Shown here piece by piece: positions 16,553-64,000 of a stretch of DNA of 64,000 bases. The stretch spans positions 29,491 through 93,490 of the forward strand of contig JAISXO010000034.1 of assembly GCA_031270475.1 (NCBI GenBank), in the 5' to 3' direction. The DNA comes from Puniceicoccales bacterium (GTDB taxonomy: Bacteria; Verrucomicrobiota; Verrucomicrobiia; Opitutales; LL51). Both the position numbers and the translations under genes were made by a program. The notes under the pieces were generated by a model. The model was given only the letters and a program-made list of their open reading frames with translations. It did not search any database and was not told where the DNA came from. How positions within the stretch are numbered: the stretch's first letter is position 1; the number at the start of each line of letters is the position of its first letter.

Positions 16553-17056
16553 ATAAATTTCTAAAAGAACCTAAAAATATTGTCTGCATTTTTTATTAGT
16601 TCCTCTTTTTTCTCAAAGGTAAAAACATCGAAGAATAAAAGGTTATACATTTGTTCCCTAATGGTTTCTTTTCGATTTTACGGAAAAGGTTTGTTTCTCT
16701 CGATATCCAAATATTCCCGAAACCCACTAGCGAACATAGCAATCATCCTCTAAAACATTTCTAATTTCATTTTTCATTTTAGGGGAGATATTTGGCGACT
16801 CATAAATTTCTAAAAGGACCTAAAAGCATTGTCTGTATTTTTTATTAGTTCCTCTTTTTTCTCAAAGGTAAAAACATCGAAGAATAAAAGGTTATACATT
16901 TGTTCCCTAATGGTTTCTTTTTGATTTTACGGAAAAGGTTTGTTTCCCTCGATATCCAAATATTCCCGAAACCCACTAGCGAACATAGCAATCATCCTCT
17001 AAAACATTTCTAATTTCATTTTTCATTTTAGGGAAAATATTTGGCGACTCATAAAA
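16553..17056. repeat. tandem duplication, 2 x ~249 bp
   Basis: 16553-16801 and 16802-~17056 are near-identical by eye, with a few substitutions or indels. Each unit contains the 3' end of a minus-strand open frame (...PKMKNEIRNVLEDDCYVR*) plus ~170 bp downstream. Confidence 0.9.
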
Positions 17057-17263
17057 TTCTTCTAGTTGGTACATAGCGTTTGCTCTTTCCTTAGGCGGGA
17101 GAACATAGTTTTTTACATTTCCCAGGCATTTGCGACACTTGTTGTCTGCCGCTTGAATTACGAAGTTGTTTAACTTAAATCTTGCTGTTACATGAACTTT
17201 TCTAGATCCAAAGGCTTTCCTTCCTAAAACTTCCCCAGTATCCCCATCCAGAGCAGATGTCCT
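16976..17263 (-). pseudogene. start-less 95-codon open frame (gene remnant?)
   Basis: The frame is open from the TAA at 17264-17266 to the TAG at 16976-16978: RTSALDGDTGEVLGRKAF...NKCRKCLGNVKNYVLPPKERANAMYQLEEFYESPNIFPKMKNEIRNVLEDDCYVR. The first ATG is at codon 64. No family recognised. Confidence 0.3.
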
Positions 17264-18502: not shown

Positions 18503-19474
18503 ATGAATTGGTTATTGCGCATCGGTAAAGTTTTTTTCATAACGGGTTTACTTTTTTTGGTCGGTTGCGACGGTAATAATATTTGTAATATGACGCCGAA
18601 TGTTATCACTCAAAATCAGTCAAATATCTATACCCTTACTGTGGCTGTCCGCGGTCTGAACAATGGCATCGTGCGGAAAAATATCAAGCCCTACGTGGTC
18701 GTCAACGGCGAAAAACATGAGATGAAAAAACATCCCGATGGCAATAATATGTTCGTTTATGACTATCATTTCAATGGCATCGGAACAATTCCATACTATT
18801 TTGAAGTGGTTTATGTCGGTACTCGCAATGGTATTCCTCGGGAGAAAATTGCGAAATCTGATCTGTTTAGTACGGCGGTGACGGATAAATATATTTTTGC
18901 TTTGAATGCTAATCGCGGACCGGTCGGTGCAACGGTGAATATCGTCGGCTATGGTTTGACTCGGGCGGATAAGGTGCGCTTTGGAGGACGTACCCTATCC
19001 GCAAATTGGCTGTCCTCCGGTGCCATTGAATTTGTCGTCCCTTCCGTGGAATGCGATAGTGAGTACGAAGTATATCTGCTTACGAACCGAAAGGAACTTT
19101 TGGCAGGAACATTCTTTGTGGATGAATCGGTCTTGCATTGCAGTACGGACTTTATTCGCCTCGCCAATGGCGAAAGTCAACGCCTTGTGTTTATGATCGA
19201 TCACCCTGCCCAGGAAGATGGCGTCGAAGTCGAAATTACAACCGATATTCCTGATAATATTGTTATGCCGGAAGTACATTTTATGCCCGGTGAACGCACG
19301 GTGAGCGTGAATATTACCGGCGGTGAAGATGCGGCTAAGGGGACACTGTTTGTTCGGGCTAAAGGCTATTCATCGTTGGAAATTCCTTTGGAAATCGGCG
19401 ATGTGGACGCGGAAACTGTCTCTTCCGATTTTCAGTCCGCTCCCGAAGAAAGTGATGATGTCGTCGTCTTGTAA
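18503..19474 (+). CDS. lipoprotein with IPT/TIG-like repeats
   Basis: The internal ATG of ORF 18341..19474 gives MNWLLRIGKVFFITGLLFLVGC (lipobox LVGC). GPVGATVNIVGYGL...VRFGG resembles IPT/TIG. Confidence 0.6.
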   Translation: MNWLLRIGKVFFITGLLFLVGCDGNNICNMTPNVITQNQSNIYTLTVAVRGLNNGIVRKNIKPYVVVNGEKHEMKKHPDGNNMFVYDYHFNGIGTIPYYFEVVYVGTRNGIPREKIAKSDLFSTAVTDKYIFALNANRGPVGATVNIVGYGLTRADKVRFGGRTLSANWLSSGAIEFVVPSVECDSEYEVYLLTNRKELLAGTFFVDESVLHCSTDFIRLANGESQRLVFMIDHPAQEDGVEVEITTDIPDNIVMPEVHFMPGERTVSVNITGGEDAAKGTLFVRAKGYSSLEIPLEIGDVDAETVSSDFQSAPEESDDVVVL

Positions 19475-19517
19475 AATGTGAAATGTTTTTGATTGAGTTC
19501 TTCTTGATGTGTTTTTT

Positions 19518-19588
19518 GTGCACCCGTGGAGGCTTCGCCTCCTAACCTTTTTTCAAAAGGTTTTGCGGCTTTGCCGCAACGGGTGCAC
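19518..19588. repeat. nested-hairpin element with the same architecture and a different sequence
   Basis: Outer stem GTGCACCCGT / ACGGGTGCAC encloses GGAGGC-ttc-GCCTCC, AACCTTTT-ttca-AAAAGGTT and TTGCGGC-ttt-GCCGCAA. Lies between convergent genes. Confidence 0.8.
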
Positions 19589-19596
19589 AAGTAAAT

Positions 19597-19977
19597 TCAG
19601 ACGAGCAATGCGATGGCGGAGGCGATGGATTGGGTATGGGTGAGTGTGATAAGGATTTCGGAGCCCTGGAATTGTTTTAACAGAGATAGGCCATATTGGT
19701 CGAGAAGAATGGTAGGGCGGCCATTATTTTGGTGATGAACTTCGGCACTTTTCCAAAGGAATTGTTGACCGACGCCGCAATGAAATGCTTTAGCGACGGC
19801 TTCTTTAGCTGCGAAGCAAGAAGCGAGGGAATGGAATGGATTTTTTTTAGAGAAGCAGTATTGAATTTCGCCAGGGGTATAAATTTTTCGCAAGAAGCTA
19901 TTGTTATATTTTTGGTAAGCGGATTGAATGCGGGCAATTTCGATGATATCGTGACCGATGGAAAGAATAGAATTCAT
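19597..19977 (-). CDS. acpS: holo-[acyl-carrier-protein] synthase
   Basis: The internal ATG (19977) of ORF 19597..20052 gives MNSILSIGHDIIEIARI, the AcpS N-terminal signature. 126 aa. Confidence 0.85.
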   Translation of the reverse strand: MNSILSIGHDIIEIARIQSAYQKYNNSFLRKIYTPGEIQYCFSKKNPFHSLASCFAAKEAVAKAFHCGVGQQFLWKSAEVHHQNNGRPTILLDQYGLSLLKQFQGSEILITLTHTQSIASAIALLV

Positions 19978-20065
19978 ATAACGGATCAGCGTATAGTTTT
20001 TTCTAAAAGGATACATAAAAAAAGGCGGATTATTCCGCCCTTTTACTTTCAAGTTTTATAAATGA

Positions 20066-26081: not shown

Positions 26082-27458
26082 TTATATATATCGCCGCACG
26101 TTTGCCGACGGAATCGCAAGGAACGTACGATATTTAGTCACGGTTCGTCGAGCAATCCAAATGCCTTCATTTTGAAGTATTTGGGCGATTTTTTCATCGC
26201 TGAGCGGTTTGTTTTTGTTTTCATTTTTGATAATATTTTTAATACTCTCTCGGAGCGTGTTTTGTGCGATGAGGGAGCCATGATTACCGTGGGAAAAAAA
26301 GAAATCCAGCGGAATAATTCGATGTGGAATTTGAACATATTTATTTTTGACAGCCCGGGAAAGTGTTGTGGAGTGGATTTCGAGGCATTCCGCCACTTGT
26401 TTTTGACTCTGCGGACGAAGAAAATCACTGCCATTTTCTAGGAAGTCGCTTTGAAATTTCAAAATATATTCGGCAATTTTTTGTAAAGTTTCCCGGCGCT
26501 TGTGCAGCATCTTAACCAAAAATTGGGCTTGTTGTTTGTTCTCGGTAAAAAAATTACGGTCTTCGCGCTTTGATGAATGGGTAAACATCCTTAGGTAAAG
26601 GTCATTTATACGAATTTCCGGTGCACCGCGAACTTCGCAGCTCCAATGGCCGTCAATTTTTTGGAAAATAATTTCTGGAACAATCGCCGGATTGGCGTTG
26701 GGCATAATCGTTTTGAGCGGTGCAAAATTTAGCAATTTCAAGGGCACCAAAAGTGTACGCAATTCGGATGCCGTCTTACATAATTTTCTCCGCAATTTAG
26801 CGAATCGGCGATGCTCGAGGTCATCGAAATAGTGTGCAACGAGGTCATGGAGCGGCGTATTTTCCGGAATTTGCAACCGAAAGCAATCCTGCAAATCATG
26901 GGCACCAATCCCCTTCGGCGAAAGCGATCGCAATATCGCATAGGCTGTTTCAAAAACATTTTGCCGCGCATCGTCGGTCCGCGCATCGCAATTTTCCTCG
27001 CCATCCGGCCAAGAAATCCCGTACTGCTGAGCCGCATCCTCTGGCAAAAATCCGCGATCATCGAGGCTATTAATTAGCGTCGTCAGTGCCGTTTTTGTCG
27101 CCTCGTCCAAATCGGGAACCTGGGCGAGGAGGTAATCCTCAGGTGAATCTTCGGCACTAATATTTTCTAAAAAATTTGGATTGCTTTCTTCGTTATTTGG
27201 TATATCGCTCGTGCGCGCGCGCGCGCTCATATTAATAGTACTTTCCTTACTTGCACTCGCTGGAAAGCCGTAGGGAGCCGTGTCGGCGATGTCGAGAAGG
27301 GGGTTGCGCTGAATTTCCGCAGCAATGAGCCGGTAAAGTTCCTCGGTCGGCAATTGCAAAATGTCCAGAGAACGGAGCATGGACGGAGATAGTCGTTGGC
27401 TTTGAATTTGTAGGCGATCGTTCCTTAGGTCCACGGCGTAAGCATGGAGAGATACCAA
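26082..27458 (-). CDS. rpoN: RNA polymerase sigma-54 factor
   Basis: 458 aa. Gln/Leu-rich region I, HTH region, and RpoN box ARRTVTKYR near the C-terminus. Confidence 0.95.
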   Translation of the reverse strand: MVSLHAYAVDLRNDRLQIQSQRLSPSMLRSLDILQLPTEELYRLIAAEIQRNPLLDIADTAPYGFPASASKESTINMSARARTSDIPNNEESNPNFLENISAEDSPEDYLLAQVPDLDEATKTALTTLINSLDDRGFLPEDAAQQYGISWPDGEENCDARTDDARQNVFETAYAILRSLSPKGIGAHDLQDCFRLQIPENTPLHDLVAHYFDDLEHRRFAKLRRKLCKTASELRTLLVPLKLLNFAPLKTIMPNANPAIVPEIIFQKIDGHWSCEVRGAPEIRINDLYLRMFTHSSKREDRNFFTENKQQAQFLVKMLHKRRETLQKIAEYILKFQSDFLENGSDFLRPQSQKQVAECLEIHSTTLSRAVKNKYVQIPHRIIPLDFFFSHGNHGSLIAQNTLRESIKNIIKNENKNKPLSDEKIAQILQNEGIWIARRTVTKYRTFLAIPSANVRRYI

Positions 27459-27708
27459 CTTTTTTCAAGAAATGAAGTTAATTTTTGAGGGAATCAATCT
27501 GTGCCAAAAGAATTTCCGCAGCAATGAGCCGGTAAAGTTTCTCGGTCGGCAATTGCAAAATGTCCAGAGAACGGAGCATGGACGGAGATAGTCGTTGGCT
27601 TTGAATTTGTAGGCGATCGTTTCTTAGGTCCACGGCGTAAGCATGGAGAGATACCAACTTTTTTCAAGAAATGAAGTTAATTTTTGAGGGAATCAATCTG
27701 TACCAAAA
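27311..27708. repeat. tandem duplication, 2 x 199 bp, covering the rpoN 5' end and upstream region
   Basis: 27311-27509 and 27510-27708 differ at only a few positions by eye. The distal copy holds an rpoN start codon at 27657 and 49 identical or near-identical codons. Confidence 0.9.
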
Positions 27709-29087: not shown

Positions 29088-29505
29088 AACTTTCCATTAA
29101 ATTTATTTATTTATTTTGTTTTTGGCGCCGAGTTTTTGGAGATCGTCGCATTGGGAGAAAAGGCCGCCGCGGCCGTTAATTTTCGGAATAATTTTATCAT
29201 CAAACTGCTCGTGCACCTTGCCAAAGAGCTTGTACAGTTCGCGCAATTCGTCAAGCAATCCACAAAATTTATCGTACAATTTTCCACTGAGGCCGGGTCA
29301 ACTTTCCATTAAATTTTCTTTTTTAATTGATTTTTTATTTTTGGCGCCGAGTTTTTGGAGATCGTCGCATTGGGAGAGAAGGCCGCCGCGGCCGTTGATT
29401 TTCGGAATAATTTTATCATCAAACTGCTCGTGCACCTTGCCAAAGAGCTTGTACAGTTCGCGCAATTCGTCAAGCAATCCACAAAATTTATCGTACAATT
29501 TTCCG
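29088..29505. repeat. tandem duplication, 2 x ~212-219 bp, covering the rmuC 3' end and the rmuC-serS junction
   Basis: 29088-29299 and 29300-~29505 are near-identical apart from an AT-rich indel patch. Both copies end (minus strand) with ...TTAATGGAAAGTT(A/G)A, encoding LMES-stop. Confidence 0.9.
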
Positions 29506-30608
29506 CCGCGATCGGCAATTTCCTGTGCATTGAGGTTTTGTTTTTCGACCTGCCAAATCGCTTGAATCAGTCTCAGTGTCAAAAATAGCGTGGAAGGATA
29601 AACAATAATTACATTTTTCTGACGAGCGTATTCACAGATATCTTTTTTATGGGCCGAGGGATTGGAGACGACGCTCGCGTAGGCCGATTCGATGGGTAAA
29701 AACATCAGTAAAAATGGGCAAATATCGATGGCATTTTTAATTTGGTGGTATTTGGCTACTTCGTCGATGTGTTTTTGAATGGAGGCAATATGTTGCTGGA
29801 AAAACCGTTCCCGTTCCTGGGGGTCGGGGGTATTGACCATGCGTTCGTAGGCGGAAAGGGAGACCTTTGCATCGATCAAAATCCACTGATTGCGCGGGAG
29901 TTTGATGAGGAAATCCGGTCGAGCGGCTCCGTCATCGATCTTCAATTCGAGCCCCCTCCCTTGCTTGACATAGTCGCCATTTTCTTCAGATAGCCCGGCC
30001 TGCTCGAGGAGATTTTCCAGTTGAACCTCGCCCCAATCTCCCTGAATCTTCGCGTTATTGCGCAGGGCATTGGTCAAATTTTCGGCTTCGTTATGCATTT
30101 TTTCCACGCTGTCGAGGAGCGATTTGAGGTGGATCGACAGTTCCGTGCGCGATTTTGTTTCCGGAGAGAAAATTTCGGTTTTGAAGGTAGAGAATTCTTT
30201 TTGGAGATCGACGATAAGGTGGCCGATTTCCTTTTGTGTCTCCTCGGAAAATTTTTGTTTTTTGGCTTCTAGAATTTCCTGGGAGAGGCTGGAGAGCTCG
30301 AGTTTGAGTTGCTCTCGATGTTTGAGGATTTCGCTACGAGCGGTTTCGATAGCAATTTTTTCACCGGAGAGCCGTTGAAAATTTTCAAAAAGCTGATTGA
30401 ATTCCTGAGTTTTCTGTAAAAACTGCGCTTCAATGGCGGATAATCTCCCTTGTAATTCGGCCTTTTGCGTGGCGATTTCGGTGAAGCGCTCTTGGATATC
30501 CTTGAGTTGTGCAGCCAATGCGTTACATTCACTGCGATATTTATTAGCAAAATAGCAGATAATTCCTAGGAAAAACCCACAAGAAATAAGACACAGCGCA
30601 ATGATCAT
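29298..30608 (-). CDS. rmuC: DNA recombination protein RmuC
   Basis: 436 aa. N-terminal TM helix, long coiled coil, and RmuC nuclease-like C-domain (RPDFLIKLP..., IDAKVSL). Confidence 0.9.
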   Translation of the reverse strand: MIIALCLISCGFFLGIICYFANKYRSECNALAAQLKDIQERFTEIATQKAELQGRLSAIEAQFLQKTQEFNQLFENFQRLSGEKIAIETARSEILKHREQLKLELSSLSQEILEAKKQKFSEETQKEIGHLIVDLQKEFSTFKTEIFSPETKSRTELSIHLKSLLDSVEKMHNEAENLTNALRNNAKIQGDWGEVQLENLLEQAGLSEENGDYVKQGRGLELKIDDGAARPDFLIKLPRNQWILIDAKVSLSAYERMVNTPDPQERERFFQQHIASIQKHIDEVAKYHQIKNAIDICPFLLMFLPIESAYASVVSNPSAHKKDICEYARQKNVIIVYPSTLFLTLRLIQAIWQVEKQNLNAQEIADRGGKLYDKFCGLLDELRELYKLFGKVHEQFDDKIIPKINGRGGLLSQCDDLQKLGAKNKKSIKKENLMES

Positions 30609-37854: not shown

Positions 37855-39054
37855 TTGCCGAAAAATACGTTTATTCCCATGGACGCGCTCGTCAAACTCG
37901 TCGACGGTATCGATACAATTGTTGGACAGGAGTCCCTATCGGAACGCCTATCGCAAAAAAAAATCCTGAAAGTGAAACTTGGTGTCGATCCAACTCGCCC
38001 CGATTTGACCTTTGGCCATATGGTCGTTTTCAATAAATTGCGCCAGTTTCAGGATCTCGGCCACGAAGCAATTTTGCTGATCGGCGACCATACTGCTACC
38101 ATTGGCGATCCTTCCGGTCGTTCTTCGACGCGCCCGGTGTTGACTACCCAAGAGGTCGACCAAAATGCCAAAACTTACCTCGAGCAGGCCTTCAAAATTA
38201 TCGATCCCGAGAGGACGACGATTCGGCGCAATAGCGAGTGGTTTCGAAGGATGACGTTCGACGATATGCTCATTATTGCCCGTAAAATGACGGTTGCGCG
38301 GATGCTTGAGCGGGACGATTTTGCGAAACGCTACCGCGAAAATGAGCCCATTTCCATTGTCGAGTTTTTATATCCTTTGATGCAGGGGTATGATTCGGTC
38401 ATGCTCGAAGCCGACGTCGAGCTTGGCGGAACGGATCAATTTTTCAATTTATTGGTTGGCCGCGCGCTCCAAAGGGATTATGGCCAGCGGGAGCAGATTG
38501 TCATCACGATGCCGCTCATCGTCGGTCTTGATGGGAAGCGTAAAATGTCAAAAAGTTACGATAATTACATTTCATTTAACCATTCTTCAAAGGATATGTT
38601 TGGGCGGATCATGTCGATTCCGGACGAAGTGATGTGGACCTATTTCAAGTTATTATTGGAGTATTCTGACGGGGCGATCGAGGCGTTGAAGGGGGGGCAT
38701 CCCATGGATGCGAAAAAATTTTTGGCTCGATCGTTGGTGGCGCGATTTTACGGTCCAGAAGTCGGGGAGCAAGAGTTAGCGGATTTTGAGGCGGTATTTT
38801 CGCATGGAGAAATCCCGGAAGCGATGCCGGAATTTTCGTTACAAGCGATGGCAAAGGATCCGGTTACTTTAGCCGACGCGATGGCATATTCGCAATTTTT
38901 TGAAAGCAATCGAGAGATTCGCCGACTCATTGAGCAAGGAGCTGTCAAAGTTAATGGGAAGAGTGAAAAGAATTTTAAGTTTCCTTTACGATCCGACCGC
39001 TGTCCCCATGTCATTCAGTCTGGCAAGCGCATATTTTTAAAAGTTATTCCGTAG
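37855..39054 (+). CDS. tyrS: tyrosyl-tRNA synthetase
   Basis: 399 aa. Class I motifs (TFGHMV HIGH-like, KMSKS). C-terminal S4-like domain (IRRLIEQGAVKVNG). Alternative start at 37879. Confidence 0.9.
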   Translation: MPKNTFIPMDALVKLVDGIDTIVGQESLSERLSQKKILKVKLGVDPTRPDLTFGHMVVFNKLRQFQDLGHEAILLIGDHTATIGDPSGRSSTRPVLTTQEVDQNAKTYLEQAFKIIDPERTTIRRNSEWFRRMTFDDMLIIARKMTVARMLERDDFAKRYRENEPISIVEFLYPLMQGYDSVMLEADVELGGTDQFFNLLVGRALQRDYGQREQIVITMPLIVGLDGKRKMSKSYDNYISFNHSSKDMFGRIMSIPDEVMWTYFKLLLEYSDGAIEALKGGHPMDAKKFLARSLVARFYGPEVGEQELADFEAVFSHGEIPEAMPEFSLQAMAKDPVTLADAMAYSQFFESNREIRRLIEQGAVKVNGKSEKNFKFPLRSDRCPHVIQSGKRIFLKVIP

Positions 39055-39505
39055 AAAATAATTAGTGCGTTTATGGCTAATTATTTTTTGCATTATCGCA
39101 GTCGAAAAATTATTTTTTTGTAACGGCGATATATCTTTAAATAGATTTTGAGGCGGTATTGCACACAGAGAAATTGAAAAAAAACAAAAAGGATTTTAAG
39201 ATTCCTTTATAATTCGACCGCTGTCCCCATATTATTCAGTCCGGCAAGCGCATATTTTTAAAAGTTATTCCGTAGGAAATAATTAATGTGTTTACGGTTA
39301 ATTATTTTTTGCATTATCGCAATCGAAAAATTATTTTTTTGTAACGGCGATATATCTTTAAATAGATTTTGAGGCGGTATTGCACACAGAGAAATTGAAA
39401 AAAACAAAAAGAATTTTAAGATCCTTTTACGATTCGACCGCTGTCCCCATGTCATTCGGTCTGGCAAGCGCATACTTTTAAAAGTTATTCCGTAGGAAAA
39501 TGATT
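38972..39505. repeat. tandem repeat, ~2.4 x ~221 bp, reiterating the tyrS 3' end
   Basis: ATTTTAAG...CGACCGCTGTCCCCAT...GGCAAGCGCATA..TTTTAAAAGTTATTCCGTAG recurs at 38972, 39193 and 39413. The units also carry AGATTTTGAGGCGGTATT, which matches tyrS at ~38785. Confidence 0.85.
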
Positions 39506-39545
39506 AATTTATTTACAATTGAATCTTTTTTTTTACACTAATGCA

Positions 39546-42740: not shown

Positions 42741-42842
42741 GGGGGCAAAAGCTGCGCGGTTCCCGCGCAAGGATAGAGGATTCTCCCCTATCCTTCAAGG
42801 GGCGTAGCCCCTTGAGCTTTTGCCCCCGCGCCCGCAGGGCGC
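42741..42842 (+). repeat. cloverleaf element, copy C3
   Basis: Outer stem GGGGGCAAAAGCT / AGCTTTTGCCCCC. Inner hairpins GCGCGG-ttc-CCGCGC, AAGGATAGAGGA-ttc-TCCCCTATCCTT (one mismatch) and CAAGGGGC-gta-GCCCCTTG. Trailing hairpin GCGCCC-gca-GGGCGC. Confidence 0.85.
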
Positions 42843-47043: not shown

Positions 47044-47668
47044 ATTTTTTTTGTATTACGAATTGTTGATGTTTTTTTTATTCTGTTCGGGGTGTACACT
47101 TTTCAAGACGACTCCCGATCGGACGCGTCTATTTGACATTGGATTTCGGGGGACGCAATCGGCGATGTCTTCGGTAGACAGTGCAAAAATTTGTCTTATT
47201 TTGGGGAGTTTTCCGGATTATCTCGATGGATCACCGATCATCACGAAGATTGGTGAGCATGAATTGAAAAATAATCCGCGCTATCGTTGGGCCAAACCGC
47301 TTTCGGAAACGATTCTTTACATTGTAAAACGCAGTATTTTGCAAAGTTTTTCGAAAGTTTACGTCTATGAATTCCCCAAAGATACCATGGATAAGATTGA
47401 TTTTACGCTATGTTTAGACGTCGATGGGCTGGAGATTTGCGAAGTGACGCAGCGGATTATCTTTAAAGGGACGTGGACTTTTTTAGATGCGAAGCAACGG
47501 AATATAACCCATGCTCCATTTGAATTTTGCGAGTCATTTGATGATTTTTCGGATCGTTACGGAGAAATAGTGGCCAAGGTGGAGCAGGTTATCCATCATT
47601 TAGGCGACGCGATTGTAAAGGAAATGGATCTTATTTTTCTAAAAAGAATAACGGGAAATAATCCCTAG
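47033..47668 (+). CDS. ABC-transport auxiliary lipoprotein (PqiC/YmbA-like)
   Basis: MKTRFFLYYELLMFFLFCSGC lipobox. Its position directly after an MCE gene is typical. Confidence 0.6.
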   Translation: MKTRFFLYYELLMFFLFCSGCTLFKTTPDRTRLFDIGFRGTQSAMSSVDSAKICLILGSFPDYLDGSPIITKIGEHELKNNPRYRWAKPLSETILYIVKRSILQSFSKVYVYEFPKDTMDKIDFTLCLDVDGLEICEVTQRIIFKGTWTFLDAKQRNITHAPFEFCESFDDFSDRYGEIVAKVEQVIHHLGDAIVKEMDLIFLKRITGNNP

Positions 47669-47958
47669 CAAGCCGTTTGGGATGCGTTTAAAAGAAGAAG
47701 AGAATATTAGTGGAGAGAGGCGTCGCATTTCTTTTTTTGATATGAATGATAGAAATAAGAAGAAATAGTGGCCAAGGAGGAGCAGGTTATCCATCATTTA
47801 GGCGACGCGATTGTAAAGGAAATGGATCTTATTTTTCTAAAAAAAATAACGGGAAATAATCCCTAGCAAGCCGTTTTGGATGCGTTTAAAAGAAGAAAAG
47901 AATATTAGGGGAGAGGCGTCGCATTTCTTTTTTTGATATGAATGATGGAAATAAGAAG
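47563..47958. repeat. tandem duplication, 2 x 198 bp, spanning both 3' ends of a convergent gene pair
   Basis: 47563-47760 and 47761-47958 are near-identical. The junction reads gatAGAAATAagaAGAAATAgtgg, with AGAAATA microhomology. Confidence 0.9.
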
Positions 47959-49224
47959 ACTGATTGCGGAACCTAAAAGAAGAATACGCGTCAAAATAAA
48001 ATATGAACCAAAACTCTTTTGAGAATAACTGAACGCCGATGGCGCAATGGCGGCAAAAAGAGAGACGATCAGTGCCACGCTAGACATGATGTGCCCAAGG
48101 TGTTTCCGGCCAAAAAGTTTGGGCCAAGGCGCCGCAGAGGCGATTCCGTAAAGCGACCAGTTAAATCCACACAAGCAAATAAAAGGCCATAATCCCCACG
48201 ATTGGCAAACGTTTTCTAAAAAAAACATCAGAGCCGCATTGGTCGAAAAAATTGCGAGTAAACAGCAGCGAATTGAAGATCGATCCTGAAGAATACTGAA
48301 TAGAACTCCCGCAATCGCGCTGACTACGGCGGCAAATGGAAAAATGTTCAGTGGATTGGCAGTGCAGGCGTGGGCCTCGCGAAAAATATCGACGATGTGA
48401 ATCTCTAAACCCGTTGAAGTAAAAGTCGACGTCGAAACCGCTAGAACAAAAATCCAAAAATCAAAGGTACCAAGTGCCTGACGCAACGTGTAGTCGCGCG
48501 CAACAATTGGATGATCACTGTTGTTTTTTAATCCATCTCGATTGCTGCCAACCGACTGAGGATTGTCGCGACATAGGGCCCAAATAAAAGGAAGCATTAC
48601 CAAAAGAATAATGAGGCCTTGCGCCATCCAAGCCGTGAGGTAGCCCAATTCTTCGATTAAACGGTGAATAATCTTCGGCGCACAACCAAAGGTAATGGAA
48701 ACAAAAATACCGGAAATGCCAATCATGGTGCAACTTCTTTTATCGTACCACTGGAGAAGCATCATGCGACTGGCGAGCGGGATGAGGTTTTGTCCGCATA
48801 GTTTTAGTAAAAAAAGTCCCGGGAAAAGTATGCAAGTAACGGCGACAAAGTGCGAGGTACAGCCTTCCACCGAGGCGATGGCAGAAGCGATGTGGCCCAT
48901 GAAAAGCAGTGTTAATCCCAGCATTAATGTGGCATAGGTAACGGCTCGACGAATTCCGATGCGGTCAAAAAGTGTGCCTAAAAGTGGCAGTAACAGGGCA
49001 CTGAGCAGGGTCGCGAAGAAAAAAATATTACTGAAATGATTGCGAGAAATGTGTAAATTTTGAATGAGTTCTTCCGTAAAGGGGCAAAGGCCGACGCTAT
49101 GGCCAGGAATACTAATCATTCGCGCGCAAAGAGAGGTAAAAAAGATGACCAAACCGTAAAAAAATGGTACACGCTTTGGAGCAAAGGGAAAATTTGGGGC
49201 AAAAATTTTCGATTTTTTCGACAT
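47905..49224 (-). CDS. MFS transporter
   Basis: 439 aa, ~12 predicted hydrophobic helices, and an MFS motif-A-like LGTLFDRIGIRR. Confidence 0.75.
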   Translation of the reverse strand: MSKKSKIFAPNFPFAPKRVPFFYGLVIFFTSLCARMISIPGHSVGLCPFTEELIQNLHISRNHFSNIFFFATLLSALLLPLLGTLFDRIGIRRAVTYATLMLGLTLLFMGHIASAIASVEGCTSHFVAVTCILFPGLFLLKLCGQNLIPLASRMMLLQWYDKRSCTMIGISGIFVSITFGCAPKIIHRLIEELGYLTAWMAQGLIILLVMLPFIWALCRDNPQSVGSNRDGLKNNSDHPIVARDYTLRQALGTFDFWIFVLAVSTSTFTSTGLEIHIVDIFREAHACTANPLNIFPFAAVVSAIAGVLFSILQDRSSIRCCLLAIFSTNAALMFFLENVCQSWGLWPFICLCGFNWSLYGIASAAPWPKLFGRKHLGHIMSSVALIVSLFAAIAPSAFSYSQKSFGSYFILTRILLLGSAISLLISIIHIKKRNATPLP

Positions 49225-53618: not shown

Positions 53619-53739
53619 CCCCCCGGCCCCCCTTTCGGGGGGCCGGGGACTGGGGCAAAAGCCCAAGGCGTCGAAGACGCCTTAGGAAGATGGGGCGAAG
53701 CCCCATCTTCTGCGCGCTTCGCGCGCGGGCTTTTGCCCT
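53619..53739 (-). repeat. cloverleaf element, copy C4 (inverted inner order) with an extra leading hairpin
   Basis: Leading hairpin CCCCGGCCCCCC-tttc-GGGGGGCCGGGG. Outer stem GGGGCAAAAGCCC / GGGCTTTTGCCC encloses AAGGCGTC-gaa-GACGCCTT, GAAGATGGGGC-gaa-GCCCCATCTTC and GCGCGC-ttc-GCGCGC. Lies between convergent ftsW and recD2. Confidence 0.85.
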
Positions 53740-56096: not shown

Positions 56097-56179
56097 GGTG
56101 CTCGAGGAGGGACTCGAACCCTCATGCCTTGCGGCACCAGATCCTAAGTCTGGCGTGTCTACCATTCCACCACCCGAGC
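56097..56179 (-). tRNA. tRNA-Leu (anticodon UAG)
   Basis: The reverse complement folds as a cloverleaf: acceptor GCTCGGG/CTCGAGC, anticodon stem CCAGA/TCTGG with loop CTTAGGA, long variable arm TGCC-gcaa-GGCA, and T arm GAGGG-TTCGAGT-CCCTC. CC of CCA is encoded. Confidence 0.9.
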
Positions 56180-59236: not shown

Positions 59237-59343
59237 AAATAAAAAAACAATACTTGAATAATATTCCATAGTCTCTAAAAATTTCGTCCCCTTGTCAACA
59301 TTATTCGTAAATTTTTCCGAAAATTGCCAAAGAACTGTTGTTT

Positions 59344-59521
59344 AAAGGCTGCGCGTCCTTAGGATCCGTGAGAGGGAAGCTATTCCCGGAGCTGCCCCGC
59401 GGCGAAGCCGCGGGGGCAGCCAGCCTTCGGCCGAGCCCGGCCCTTCGGGCCGGGCTCGGCCGTCCAATGAGGTCAAGAAGTTGAGACTCCTTGCGGAGGT
59501 CTGGTCTGGGCGGAGCCCTTT
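59344..59521. repeat. GC-rich multi-hairpin element, variant copy C5
   Basis: Hairpins GGGAA-gcta-TTCCC, GCTGCCCCGCGGC-gaa-GCCGCGGGGCAGC (59391-59420), GGCCGAGCCCGGCCC-ttc-GGGCCGGGCTCGGCC (59429-59461) and GACTCC-ttgc-GGAGGTC. Flanked by AAAGGCT...AGCCCTTT. Confidence 0.75.
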
Positions 59522-61102: not shown

Positions 61103-61126
61103 ATTTATATCGCTGTTCGGCGGGCT

Positions 61127-61214
61127 GGGGCAAAAGCCGCGCGCAAAGCGCGCAAGGCCTGGGGCGAAGCCCCAGGCCTTTCAAGGAGCCTTCGGCTCCT
61201 TGGGCTTTTGCCCC
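61127..61214 (+). repeat. cloverleaf element, copy C6
   Basis: Outer stem GGGGCAAAAGCC / GGCTTTTGCCCC encloses GCGCGC-aaa-GCGCGC, AAGGCCTGGGGC-gaa-GCCCCAGGCCTT and CAAGGAGCC-ttc-GGCTCCTTG. Confidence 0.9.
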
Positions 61215-61272
61215 AAGGTCCATCGCCCGATAAATTCTTGCGAAAATCCGAGGACTTCTTTTACCCTTAGTC

Positions 61273-62364
61273 ATGTTACGGGCAGGAATTGTAGGATTAC
61301 CGAATGTGGGAAAGAGCACATTATTCAACGCATTGACGCGCACTCGCAAGGCTCAGGCGGAGAATTATCCCTTTTGCACCATCGATCCGAACATTGGCGT
61401 TGTCGAAGTCCCCGATGAGCGCCTAGCCATTTTAAAGCCCATTGCCAAGACGGAAAAACTCGTACCGGCGGCGATAGAAATAGTGGACATAGCGGGTCTC
61501 GTAGCGGGGGCGAATCGGGGCGAGGGATTGGGTAATAAATTTCTTGGAAACATTCGAGAGGTCGATGCAATTATACATGTAGTACGCTGTTTTGAGGACG
61601 GCGATATTATTCACAGTTCTGGGGGAATTGATCCGATACGCGACATTGAAATTGTCAATACGGAGCTCATTTTAGCGGACCTACAATCCATAGAAAATCA
61701 GCTCAATAAAAACATCAAAAAATCTCGGGCAAATGATGCGGAAGCGATTCGAGCCGTCGAGTTATTGCAGCATTTGGAGGAGCATCTCAACGGAGGAAAT
61801 CCGGCCAATACCTTGGAAATGGGCGATGAGGAAAAACTTTTATTAAAGTCGTTCAATTTGCTTTCTTCCAAGCCGGTGATTTACGCCTGTAACGTGGCGG
61901 AGGGGGAAATTAGTAATATATTTACGGAGCGGGTCGCAGTCCATGTGCGGTCCATGCATCATGCGGAATGTTGCATCATTTGTGCCCAATTGGAATCGGA
62001 TTTGGTTGATTTTTCCGCGGAGGAAGCGCGGACGTATCTCCTCGATTTGGGGGTTAAAGACAGCGGTGTATCGGATTTAATAGGGGCGACTTACCGTTTA
62101 CTAGGGCTTGCTTCCTATTTTACGGCCGGGGAGATGGAAGTTCACGCGTGGACGTTCAAAGTGGGCATGAAGGCACCCCAATGTGCTGGTATTATCCACG
62201 GCGATTTTGAGCGTGGATTTATTAAGGCGGAGGTGGTGAGCTATGAAGATTTGGTTGCGGCGGGATCGTTTGTTGCGGCAAAGGAAGCGGGTAAATATCG
62301 CCTCGAGGGAAAAGAATATGAAGTTAGGGATGGCGATGTGATTATTTTTCGTTTTAATGGGTAG
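61273..62364 (+). CDS. ychF: redox-regulated ATPase YchF
   Basis: 363 aa. [18 protein letters not shown] and a C-terminal TGS-like domain ending ...[11 protein letters not shown]. Confidence 0.95.
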
Positions 62365-62370
62365 TTGATT

Positions 62371-62457
62371 GGGGCGAAAGCCCAAGGAGCCGAAGGCTCC
62401 TTGAAGGCCTGGGGCTTTGCCCCAGGCCTTGCGCGCTTCGCGCGCGGCTTTTGCCCC
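62371..62457 (-). repeat. cloverleaf element, copy C7 (inverted copy of C6)
   Basis: It is the reverse complement of C6 apart from about 3 differences. Outer stem GGGGCGAAAGCC / GGCTTTTGCCCC (one G-T pair). Starts 7 nt after the ychF stop. Confidence 0.9.
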
Positions 62458-62560
62458 ATTCCGCCCGCACCGCGGCATAATTCAGGGTTCGGATTTGTTT
62501 GTGCCTGGGGTTATTGTGAAAGCAATCAGAGATTTAGTTAGGGCGGGATTATTTGTTAGA

Positions 62561-62663
62561 GCGAGGGAGGCGAACAAATATTGCCTCAAAGGAATATTGC
62601 CTCAGAGGAAAAGAATATGAAGTTAAGGATGGCGATGTAATTATTTTTCCTTTTAATAGATAA
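62561..62663 (+). pseudogene. decayed duplicate of the ychF 3' end abutting the lpxB start
   Basis: 62561-62663 aligns with ychF 62277-62364: ...AAATAT(T/C)GCCTC...GAAAAGAATATGAAGTTA(A/G)GGATGGCGATGT(A/G)ATTATTTTTC(C/G)TTTTAAT... It carries an internal 16-bp duplication and ends 2 nt before the lpxB ATG. Confidence 0.8.
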
Positions 62664-62665
62664 TC

Positions 62666-63818: not shown

Positions 63819-64000
63819 GGGCGGCCTAAGGGCTGTGCGCCATTAGGAATCCGCGCCAGGAGATCCATCTCCTGGACCTGGATAGAGCCCGGCGCGAAGC
63901 GCCGGGCTAAAATAGAAAGAGTCCCCGCGGCTACGCCGCGGGGACTCTTAAAAAGGGGACTCTTGAAAGGAGGTCAAGGAGTCTGGAGTCCTTGTGGGGG
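63819..64000. repeat. GC-rich multi-hairpin element, variant copy C8 (runs to the window edge)
   Basis: Hairpins CCAGGAGAT-cc-ATCTCCTGG (63856-63875), AGCCCGGCGC-gaa-GCGCCGGGCT (63886-63908) and GAGTCCCCGCGG-cta-CGCCGCGGGGACTC (63919-63947). Confidence 0.7.

Follow-up and report, generated by a model that had tools for sequence, protein, structure and literature searches.

Structured intergenic repeats such as REPs, MITEs and mitochondrial GC clusters are common, and their maintenance and function are still disputed. REPs are defined as imperfect palindromes of 20–40 bp, one end of which is tagged with GTAG or CGTC (PMC3733652); they are single imperfect hairpins present in tens to hundreds of copies, and REPINs are simple inverted doublets. 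Several kinds of hairpin-forming element have been described in organelles, namely the GC clusters of yeast mitochondria (PMC4478555), the double-hairpin elements of Allomyces and the repetitive hairpin-forming elements of sponges (PMC2800124), and plastid genomes are well known for small inversions whose boundaries are short inverted repeats able to form a hairpin (PMC12371153). Our literature searches turned up no account of bacterial repeats that form a closed three-hairpin junction, a cloverleaf or a four-way junction. Here we describe an element of this shape in a 64-kb window of a Puniceicoccales genome (the window being the whole stretch of DNA that was analysed, 64,000 nucleotides) and show that it is not a one-off but one copy of a small family, hereafter F1.

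The predicted junction and its counterparts in the window

The F1 element of the window occupies positions 19516–19590, has no assigned strand and is a nested palindrome predicted to form a perfect four-way junction on either strand. In agreement with the sequence-only reading of this site, it lies between convergent genes: the stop codon of an IPT/TIG-domain lipoprotein gene (18503–19474, + strand) is 41 nt upstream, and that of acpS, which encodes a 4'-phosphopantetheinyl transferase (19597–19977, − strand), is 6 nt downstream. The element is the sole hairpin of this spacer. The gene order hemN-like / lipoprotein / acpS / autotransporter is kept in relatives, and the relatives of the flanking lipoprotein come from Puniceicoccales MAGs and metagenome contigs, one MAG protein being 100% identical.

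The element is 75 nt long, with the letters TTGTGCACCCG-t-GGAGGCttcGCCTCC-t-AACCTTTTttcAAAAGGTT-TTGCGGCtttGCCGCAA-CGGGTGCACAA. Its outer stem consists of 11 perfect pairs between a left arm, TTGTGCACCCG (19516–19526), and a right arm, CGGGTGCACAA (19580–19590), and encloses three hairpins that were delineated by both the fold and a descriptor scan: hairpin c, GGAGGC-ttc-GCCTCC (19528–19542); hairpin b, AACCTTTT-ttc-AAAAGGTT (19544–19562); and hairpin a, TTGCGGC-ttt-GCCGCAA (19563–19579). None of the three, like the two arms, has a strand of its own, and all three loops are of 3 nt. The site had initially been delimited by the pairing of GTGCACCCG(T) at 19518–19527 with (A)CGGGTGCAC at 19579–19588, with the three hairpins between. 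The hairpin letters given then were right, except that the middle loop is TTC, of 3 nt, and not TTCA; the outer stem was real but longer than noted, and A19579 had been counted both in the third hairpin and in the outer stem.

When the element is folded, the RNA of the + strand (−49.4 kcal/mol, z −8.55), the RNA of the − strand (−47.2 kcal/mol, z −7.57) and the DNA (−32.4 kcal/mol, z −8.60) each give exactly this four-way junction over 19516–19590, and in none of the three cases was any of 200 shuffles as stable. The junction claimed for this site is thus borne out by predicted RNA and DNA folds on both strands. We also searched for the architecture by itself, using a structure-only descriptor (outer stem of at least 6 bp, three hairpins of at least 5 bp, linkers of at most 3 nt, Watson-Crick pairs only). 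It found five junctions in the window, namely the F1 element and four of the GGGGCAAAAGC elements (hereafter F2), and none in either 100 dinucleotide-preserving shuffles of the window or a 188-kb control set of unrelated DNA from bacteria and metagenomes. Versions with two or four hairpins were absent from the window and from the scanned Puniceicoccales loci.

A plain intrinsic terminator that works in both directions, or a palindrome due to chance, would suit a convergent-gene spacer that has no other hairpin and in which the element is this close to both stop codons, and a terminator scan does flag the first inner hairpin. The flagged hairpin, however, is an internal arm of the junction, and the complete structure leads into AAGUAAAUUC on the + strand and into AAAAAACACA on the − strand, neither of which is a U-tract. 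Ordinary terminators, made of an A-run, a GC stem and a T-run, do occur in the clade, for example at 20019–20044 of the window, where the terminator is kept in L002 and L003. With the empty shuffles and control DNA, and the membership of a conserved family documented below, also standing against it, we consider this reading hardly tenable. A tRNA or tRNA-like identity was rejected as well: neither ARAGORN nor Rfam RF00005 recognises the element (the sole tRNA of the window is a tRNA-Leu at 56097–56179), which has no 7-nt anticodon loop and no D or T loop, all of its loops being of 3 nt. Across Rfam, no match reached a gathering score, and at E ≤ 10 there was only noise, at least 30 bits below the thresholds.

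The window holds five F2 copies, in both orientations and 87–93 nt long, which have F1's architecture in a different sequence family; none has an assigned strand. They lie between accC and lepA (724–816), upstream of pyrG (42741–42827), between the convergent ftsW/rodA and recD2 (53652–53739), 57 nt upstream of ychF (61126–61215) and 6 nt downstream of ychF (62371–62457), the last within a 301-nt insertion that is absent from four relatives. The copy at pyrG carries one A.C/G.U mismatch in its middle hairpin and is hence the one missed by the descriptor. Covariance model R1, built only from relatives of the F1 element, gives the window's F1 copy 92.9 bits (− strand) and 73.0 bits (+ strand) and detects all five F2 copies (25–38 bits, E 1e-7 to 3e-4), whereas a sequence-only nhmmer profile of the identical alignment finds no F2 above noise. 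It is therefore the architecture that F1 and F2 have in common, which upholds the earlier claim of the same topology with no shared primary sequence; the claim that the sizes match as well is not supported as it stood, F1 being somewhat smaller, at 75 nt against 87–93 nt.

By eye, GCGG is common to the a hairpins of F1 and F2 and AGGAG to their c hairpins, and an F2 copy in the relative L047 carries TGCGGC-ttc-GCCGCA, which is the F1 a hairpin. Hidden sequence homology between the two families was rejected for want of any signal from the sequence-only HMM, and the by-eye likeness is an unproven lead. Further nested palindromes besides F1 and F2 occur in the window and in relatives; the palindromic modules are GC-rich, in a genome of 44% GC, and always intergenic. 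Two other leads came to nothing: GTGCAC is not an avoided restriction site (8 observed against 11.6 expected), and a scan of viral contigs with the F2 pattern returned one match, which was unrelated.

F2 is more dynamic than F1. It is absent from both ychF flanks in the four relatives that were read there (ychF–lpxB included), and in L047 it is present at another site, with an outer stem of 23 bp. Together, F1 and F2 are the most elaborate among a broader set of palindromic modules, in which perfect hairpins with a stem of at least 10 bp (GC-rich, with 3-nt loops) number 9 against 0.5 expected.

The F1 family, its loci and its hosts

The extent of the family was read from a scan of 185,579 species genomes with the pattern TGTGCACCCG-N45-65-CGGGTGCACA. 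The scan matched 23 loci, 14 of them in seven Puniceicoccales MAGs and 9 in other genomes. All 14 Puniceicoccales matches fold as three-hairpin junctions, and none of the 27 outer-stem matches elsewhere does (9 from genomes, 17 from metagenomes and 1 from a viral contig), the metagenome and viral matches being of use as negative controls only. F1 is limited to a clade of termite-gut Puniceicoccales (Opitutales in GTDB). The accession range of the F1-bearing MAGs is that of a published termite-gut MAG set, in which the matching Opitutales families are regarded as putative flagellate endosymbionts with small genomes (PMC11257099).

Every F1 copy is a perfect four-way junction with the outer stem TGTGCACCCG(T)...(A)CGGGTGCACA, hairpins a, b and c, and loops of 3–4 nt. 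The unit is 72–79 bp long, its arms are perfect over 11–13 bp and its ends are TTTGTGCACCCG. At least four orthologous sites can be defined by their flanking genes: locus A, between the lipoprotein gene and acpS, with F1 present in the window and in eight relatives (L001, L002, L003, L006, L011/L005, L021, L051 and L052); locus B, between lysS and miaB (L008, L010, L016, L017 and L026); locus C, between two hypothetical genes (L014, L022 and L025); and locus D, between a cysteine desulfurase gene and ispG (L018). The sequence-only reading had named two results that would speak against it, nested palindromes of this kind at a similar frequency in shuffled sequence and a site that is unique and not conserved. 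Neither was seen: the shuffles were empty, and the site is kept in eight relatives.

All F1 copies are intergenic, as are all six elements of the window (F1 and F2), which lie 6–120 nt downstream of a stop codon. About 3–4 or more F1 copies were seen per MAG, and the strict pattern matched 1–3 loci per fragmentary MAG. Occupancy of the sites varies. The locus A spacer of L004, a more distant relative, holds neither F1 nor a stable structure (z +1.5 and −0.9), and the MAG to which L004 belongs carries F1 at locus B (L016); the window, for its part, has no F1 at locus D. Insertion boundaries could not be read from filled against empty sites, the spacers concerned (L004 at locus A; the window and L018 at locus D) being too diverged to align.

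Constraint, inheritance and interior inversion

In a model-based alignment of 14 F1 copies, which is fitted to the structure of the model so that pair counts lean towards structure, paired cells make up 97%, compared with 90.1% for shuffles and 42–51% once the partners are slid, and double-sided changes occur in 14 of 34 pairs (42 cells), a figure reached by none of 500 shuffles. Hairpin b has double-sided changes in 6 of its 8 pairs. Hairpin c covaries in 4 of 6 pairs, other copies having, for example, AAGAGGC/GCCTCTT or AGGAGGT/ACCTCCT, and hairpin a has an invariant GCGG core and a closing pair that alternates between C-G and T-A. Nine consecutive pairs of the outer stem show no variation across the 14 copies, and its core, TGCACCCG/CGGGTGCA, does not differ between any of the copies, which come from four loci and at least ten genomes. 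The loops vary freely between copies. Moreover, F1 aligns between genomes whose surrounding spacers are unalignable. As judged from these alignments, F1 copies are evidently under purifying selection, in sequence for the outer stem and in pairing for the inner stems.

This pattern partly supports the interpretation from which the work started. That the structure itself is what is selected agrees with the compensatory substitutions in the three inner hairpins. A shape found without its sequence does not describe the element, which has a sequence family of its own with an invariant outer-stem core, and the idea of a shape rebuilt from arbitrary sequence at one spot is not supported.

The identity of the interiors is 0.884 between copies at the same locus in different genomes and 0.745 between different loci of the same genome, over a background of 0.717; the copies are thus inherited vertically and not homogenised. 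At least one new F1 copy arose through segmental duplication and not through precise transposition. In the MAG Ncb351, the single exception to the clustering of interiors by locus, the copy at locus D is a segmental duplicate, 236–248 nt long, of locus B, and comprises the first about 39 codons of miaB, the upstream region and the F1 element, its edge being 5 nt beyond the element. Within the duplicate, the element has 2 differences in 72 positions, both in triloops, and the co-duplicated flank has 28 in 176 (Fisher p = 0.0025), which again points to constraint on the element.

These findings bear on the proposal that F1 is a selfish palindromic element acting at the DNA level, without a host function, in the manner of MITEs or mitochondrial GC clusters. 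Such an element would spread via single-stranded hairpin intermediates, or via a putative enzyme to which the outer stem would serve as a terminal inverted repeat, and its pairing would be kept perfect by hairpin self-correction (template switching). The multiple copies with identical termini at unrelated loci would fit this picture, as would the variable presence (locus A empty in L004 while its MAG has the locus B copy, locus D empty in the window, F2 absent at both ychF flanks in four relatives yet elsewhere in L047) and the excess of GC-rich hairpins between the genes of a 44% GC genome. One architecture with different termini, as in F1 and F2, is what two element/enzyme pairs would be expected to give, and yeast mitochondrial GC clusters are alike in their hairpin constraint and in the merger and shuffling of palindromes (PMC4478555). 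On the other hand, no direct repeat of at least 4 bp that could be a target-site duplication, and no insertion target motif, was found at any of 21 F1 and F2 copies; a Pfam search of the ~45 window ORFs returned housekeeping genes only, with no transposase, RAYT, integrase or invertase; and no IS element was seen in the window or in the relatives' loci. The copies cluster by locus and not by genome, which argues against a recent burst and against concerted evolution, and the sole documented new copy is a segmental duplication and not a precise insertion. Finally, dead copies should decay, but the outer stem is invariant amid randomised flanks and the duplicated element has changed more slowly than its flank. 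Selfish spread is, in our view, possible but doubtful. Membership among typical MITEs was rejected, the terminal inverted repeats and the filled and empty sites being there but not the target-site duplication or, among the window ORFs, a transposase.

The order of the hairpins and the three loops are asymmetric, and the orientation of each copy can be read directly. On the lipoprotein strand, locus A reads c-b-a in the window, in its closest relative L051 and in L006, and a-b-c in L001, L002, L003, L052, L011/L005 and L021. Between L001 and L006, whose AcpS proteins are 96.8% identical and whose flanks are collinear and highly similar, the interiors are reverse complements of each other with 2 differences in 54 positions. 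At locus B, L008 and L016 face opposite ways, as do L017 on the one hand and L010 and L026 on the other, which amounts to one flip in each of two subclades defined by their flanks. There are thus at least two inversions at locus A and at least two at locus B, always bounded by the outer stem. From this comparison of relatives, the 53-nt interior has evidently been inverted repeatedly, with breakpoints that fall within the outer stem. The 'k119' in the contig names is presumably the assembly k-mer, which would then exceed the length of the element. Misassembly is unlikely, since the k-mer (if it is one) spans more than the element and the flips recur across independent assemblies.

A segment flanked by inverted repeats and found in both orientations between genomes, as seen here at loci A and B and in one case between genomes whose AcpS is 96.8% identical, recalls an inverton, in which a site-specific recombinase would flip the 53-nt cassette in a programmed way and so change the expression of a neighbouring gene. 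The cassette is only 53 nt, however, and neither a promoter-like site nor a coding end lies within 19516–19590, the interior of which is made of three hairpins only. Fold and sequence content are almost equal in the two orientations, so that little is changed by a flip, and no invertase or recombinase adjoins any F1 copy or occurs in the window. In plastids, moreover, short inverted repeats flip hairpin interiors passively (PMC12371153). We judge programmed switching to be highly improbable.

Proposed role and comparison with known systems

The reading that we favour, with a probability of roughly 50%, is that F1, which is inherited vertically and maintained by selection, works as a REP-like structural module whichever way it is turned. 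By analogy with REP/BIME elements, it would act independently of its orientation and would most likely be transcribed as part of the mRNAs of the flanking genes, either in their 3' untranslated region or between cistrons. In such a place its very stable four-helix fold may present a barrier to 3' exonucleases or serve as an insulator between units. Because the copies lie in spacers, after stop codons, such a fold would, if transcribed, be placed in this part of the mRNA whichever way the element is turned. The invariance of the outer stem implies a putative sequence-specific factor by which it would be read. As in plastids, the flips may arise passively, through template switching or recombination between the arms of the element's own 11–13-bp inverted repeat, and they would be tolerated because the fold is equal on both strands. 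Flipping would also account for the near-absence of G.U pairs, since inversion swaps the strands, and what was a G.U pair is then read as an A.C mismatch.

Several observations weigh against this REP-like role. No U-tract is present on either strand and the clade has ordinary terminators of its own; L004, with neither element nor structure, indicates that a strong structure is not indispensable at locus A; and a purely structural role in RNA leaves the never-varying outer stem unexplained. The few non-Watson-Crick pairs do not speak with one voice. In the two F2 copies with an informative context the pair is G.U on the transcribed strand, which favours a role in RNA, but the three such pairs in F1 copies conflict over the strand (L005 against L051 and L052), which counts against the REP-like reading. 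The strand of G.U pairs was dropped as a test of RNA against DNA, the non-Watson-Crick pairs being too few and the F1 cases conflicting.

The loops, too, which are mostly GAA, GTA, GGA or their complements (GNA/TNC type), fit a role at the level of DNA better. It is in mini-hairpins of DNA, rather than in RNA hairpins, that GNA triloops are noted for their stabilising effect. One such role would be that of a recognition site, of which the arms, the cruciform or the junction is bound by a nucleoid, topology, replication or recombination protein, the RNA fold being incidental. Besides the triloops typical of stable DNA mini-hairpins, an outer stem that is invariant in sequence around inner stems whose sequence changes freely, strictly Watson-Crick pairing on both strands, the acceptance of either orientation and the low number of copies per genome would all be in keeping with such a site. 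But in the window and in the Puniceicoccales loci the 10-mer arm is never found by itself, which argues against a general binding motif; no candidate protein stands out among the window ORFs; L004 does without the element at locus A; and the copies lie consistently just 3' of stop codons, a placement that a site for chromosome structure does not need. We regard a DNA-level site as unlikely.

At the RNA level, F1 could alternatively be a free-standing small RNA gene, the product of which is a four-way-junction RNA. Its compact and extremely stable fold, the covariation and the conserved stem are what such a gene might show. Its helices, however, are perfect and offer no functional sites in the form of internal loops or conserved unpaired bases, the loops vary freely, and Rfam gives no match even at E ≤ 10. 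Either orientation is tolerated relative to what would be a fixed promoter and, at locus A, the 41 and 6 nt to the stop codons leave no room for a promoter and a terminator of its own. A gene of this kind is very unlikely.

A bolder proposal, to which we lend little credence, would unite F1 and F2 in a new class defined by the closed four-way junction. In this class a putative dedicated protein, specific for both structure and sequence, would read the invariant 10-bp inverted repeat, maintain the element and actively flip the three-hairpin cassette, or else the transcribed junction would be a new RNA module; such a class would have two or more origins, from unrelated sequences, among protist endosymbionts with reduced genomes. 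With modest probability, a mechanism still to be described lies behind the architecture, the invariant arms and the flipping.

Whatever the mechanism, two families with no detectable sequence similarity have one exact architecture, and one of them can be traced at orthologous sites in at least ten genomes. F1 separates signals that are usually confounded, namely the sequence constraint on the outer stem, the structural constraint on the inner stems and a recurrent, neutral-looking inversion. It thereby provides a test case for selfish against domesticated against mutation-generated elements, in hosts that are uncultured endosymbionts undergoing genome reduction. The flip between L001 and L006 can be checked directly in existing reads.

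Set beside the described systems, F1 shares some features with each. Like a tRNA cloverleaf, it has a closing stem and three hairpins in about 75 nt, but its loops are of 3–4 nt, its closing stem is of 11–13 bp and it has no D-loop, T-loop or anticodon features. REP, BIME and REPIN elements resemble it in being short GC-rich intergenic palindromes, often just after stop codons and in both orientations, with a lineage-specific consensus and proposed roles in mRNA 3'-end protection, termination and supercoiling (PMC3733652, PMC3184786). Unlike these, F1 is a perfect four-way junction of 72–79 bp with exactly three inner hairpins, has no tag, was seen in only about 3–4 or more copies per MAG and is accompanied by no RAYT in the window; as it carries neither GTAG nor CGTC and is not a single hairpin, we do not count it as a REP in the strict sense.

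With bacterial MITEs (Correia, ERIC, RUP, Nezha and others), F1 shares terminal inverted repeats, which in its case measure 11–13 bp, a non-coding and multi-copy nature, presence or absence among relatives and a strong predicted secondary structure (PMC2229807, PMC3184786). It differs from them in that none of the 21 copies (F1 and F2) has a target-site duplication, in being far smaller than the typical ~100–400 bp, in its persistence under purifying selection at orthologous sites and in the origin of its traceable new copy by segmental duplication.

The organellar elements are likewise GC-rich perfect hairpins in the AT-richer spacers of a reduced, host-dependent genome, with constrained stems, free loops and modules that merge and shuffle into compound structures (PMC4478555, PMC2800124). 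They are, however, mitochondrial and have one or two hairpins, and the GC clusters have a defined target dinucleotide, whereas F1 has a bacterial host, a closed three-hairpin junction and no target motif. The resemblance is functional only, and F1 was not assigned to the organellar GC clusters. The small inversions of plastids, lastly, match the behaviour of F1, in that the sequence between the repeats flips recurrently and independently in close relatives and the stem is unchanged (PMC12371153, PMC12928735). In plastids it is usually the simple loop of a 3'-end hairpin that flips; in F1 it is a 53-nt cassette of three hairpins, carried by a multi-copy family within an invariant stem.

Insertion and inverted repeats at ychF

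In four relatives, ychF and lpxB either overlap or lie 2 nt apart, whereas in the window (62294-62665) the gap between them measures 301 nt and contains one element of F2, a second family of four-way junctions that has the architecture of the intergenic F1 elements and a different sequence. The insert also carries a 65-bp repeat of the ychF 3' end (62294-62358 versus 62593-62657, 89% identity), so the old ychF/lpxB junction persists as a relic. For approximately 135 nt of the insert, no match turned up in either the window or those Puniceicoccales loci that were fetched.

The F2 copies on either side of ychF (61105-61216 and 62369-62480) are mutually inverted. Their identity reaches 90% across 113 nt, a stretch that includes about 20 nt outside the element, and an inverted pair of this kind around a housekeeping gene is a composite-like arrangement.

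Tandem and segmental duplications

Four two-copy tandem duplications (16553-17060, 27311-27708, 38966-39516 and 47563-47959), an unusual density for 64 kb, were found within or beside intergenic regions of the window, with periods of 198-249 bp and copies that are 91-98% identical. A fifth may be marked by the two paired GGCCGCCGCGGCC sites, which lie at 29162 and 29381.

In MAG Ncb351, part of the cysteine desulfurase/ispG spacer (L018, 1109-1344) stems from a segmental duplication, its source being the genome's own lysS-miaB spacer (L017, 1287-1534). The duplicate includes an intact F1 copy and a decaying 5' fragment of miaB, and ends 5 nt beyond the element. At two different loci (L003, 10900-10935; L026, ~540-560), the left arm of F1 (TTTGTGCA...) is partly repeated in tandem immediately next to the element; these partial copies may be slippage products or footprints.

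Other palindromes and a shared hairpin

Clusters of perfect GC-rich hairpins, with loops of 3-4 nt and stems of up to 16 bp, occur in the window at 53621-53648, 59340-59470 and 63840-63985; none of the three forms a four-way junction, and a related hairpin (AGCCCGGCGC) was found again in the relative L047 (496-601). The same clade as F1 holds a further nested-palindrome architecture: two three-way junctions (-54 and -79 kcal/mol, z ~-9.7) lie side by side in L026 (5745-5920) and have the arm CTCGACCTTGCGGCC in common.

L047 additionally contains an F2 copy in the mnmG/gap spacer (2619-2724, outer stem of 23 bp). The middle hairpin of this copy ends in TGCGGC-ttc-GCCGCA, a tip with the same sequence as the F1 a hairpin. 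This identity hints that hairpin modules could have been exchanged or could be convergent.

A conserved terminator and an RmuC-family gene

Between acpS and the autotransporter gene, the window carries a bidirectional terminator of canonical form, with an A-run, a GC stem and a T-run (20019-20044), which is kept in L002 (11518-11543) and L003 (11474-11501). The window also contains an RmuC-family gene (29298-30608), which may be relevant to the inversion of the F1 three-hairpin interior between relatives at loci A and B, or may be a coincidence; in E. coli, rmuC has been reported to restrict inversions at short inverted repeats.
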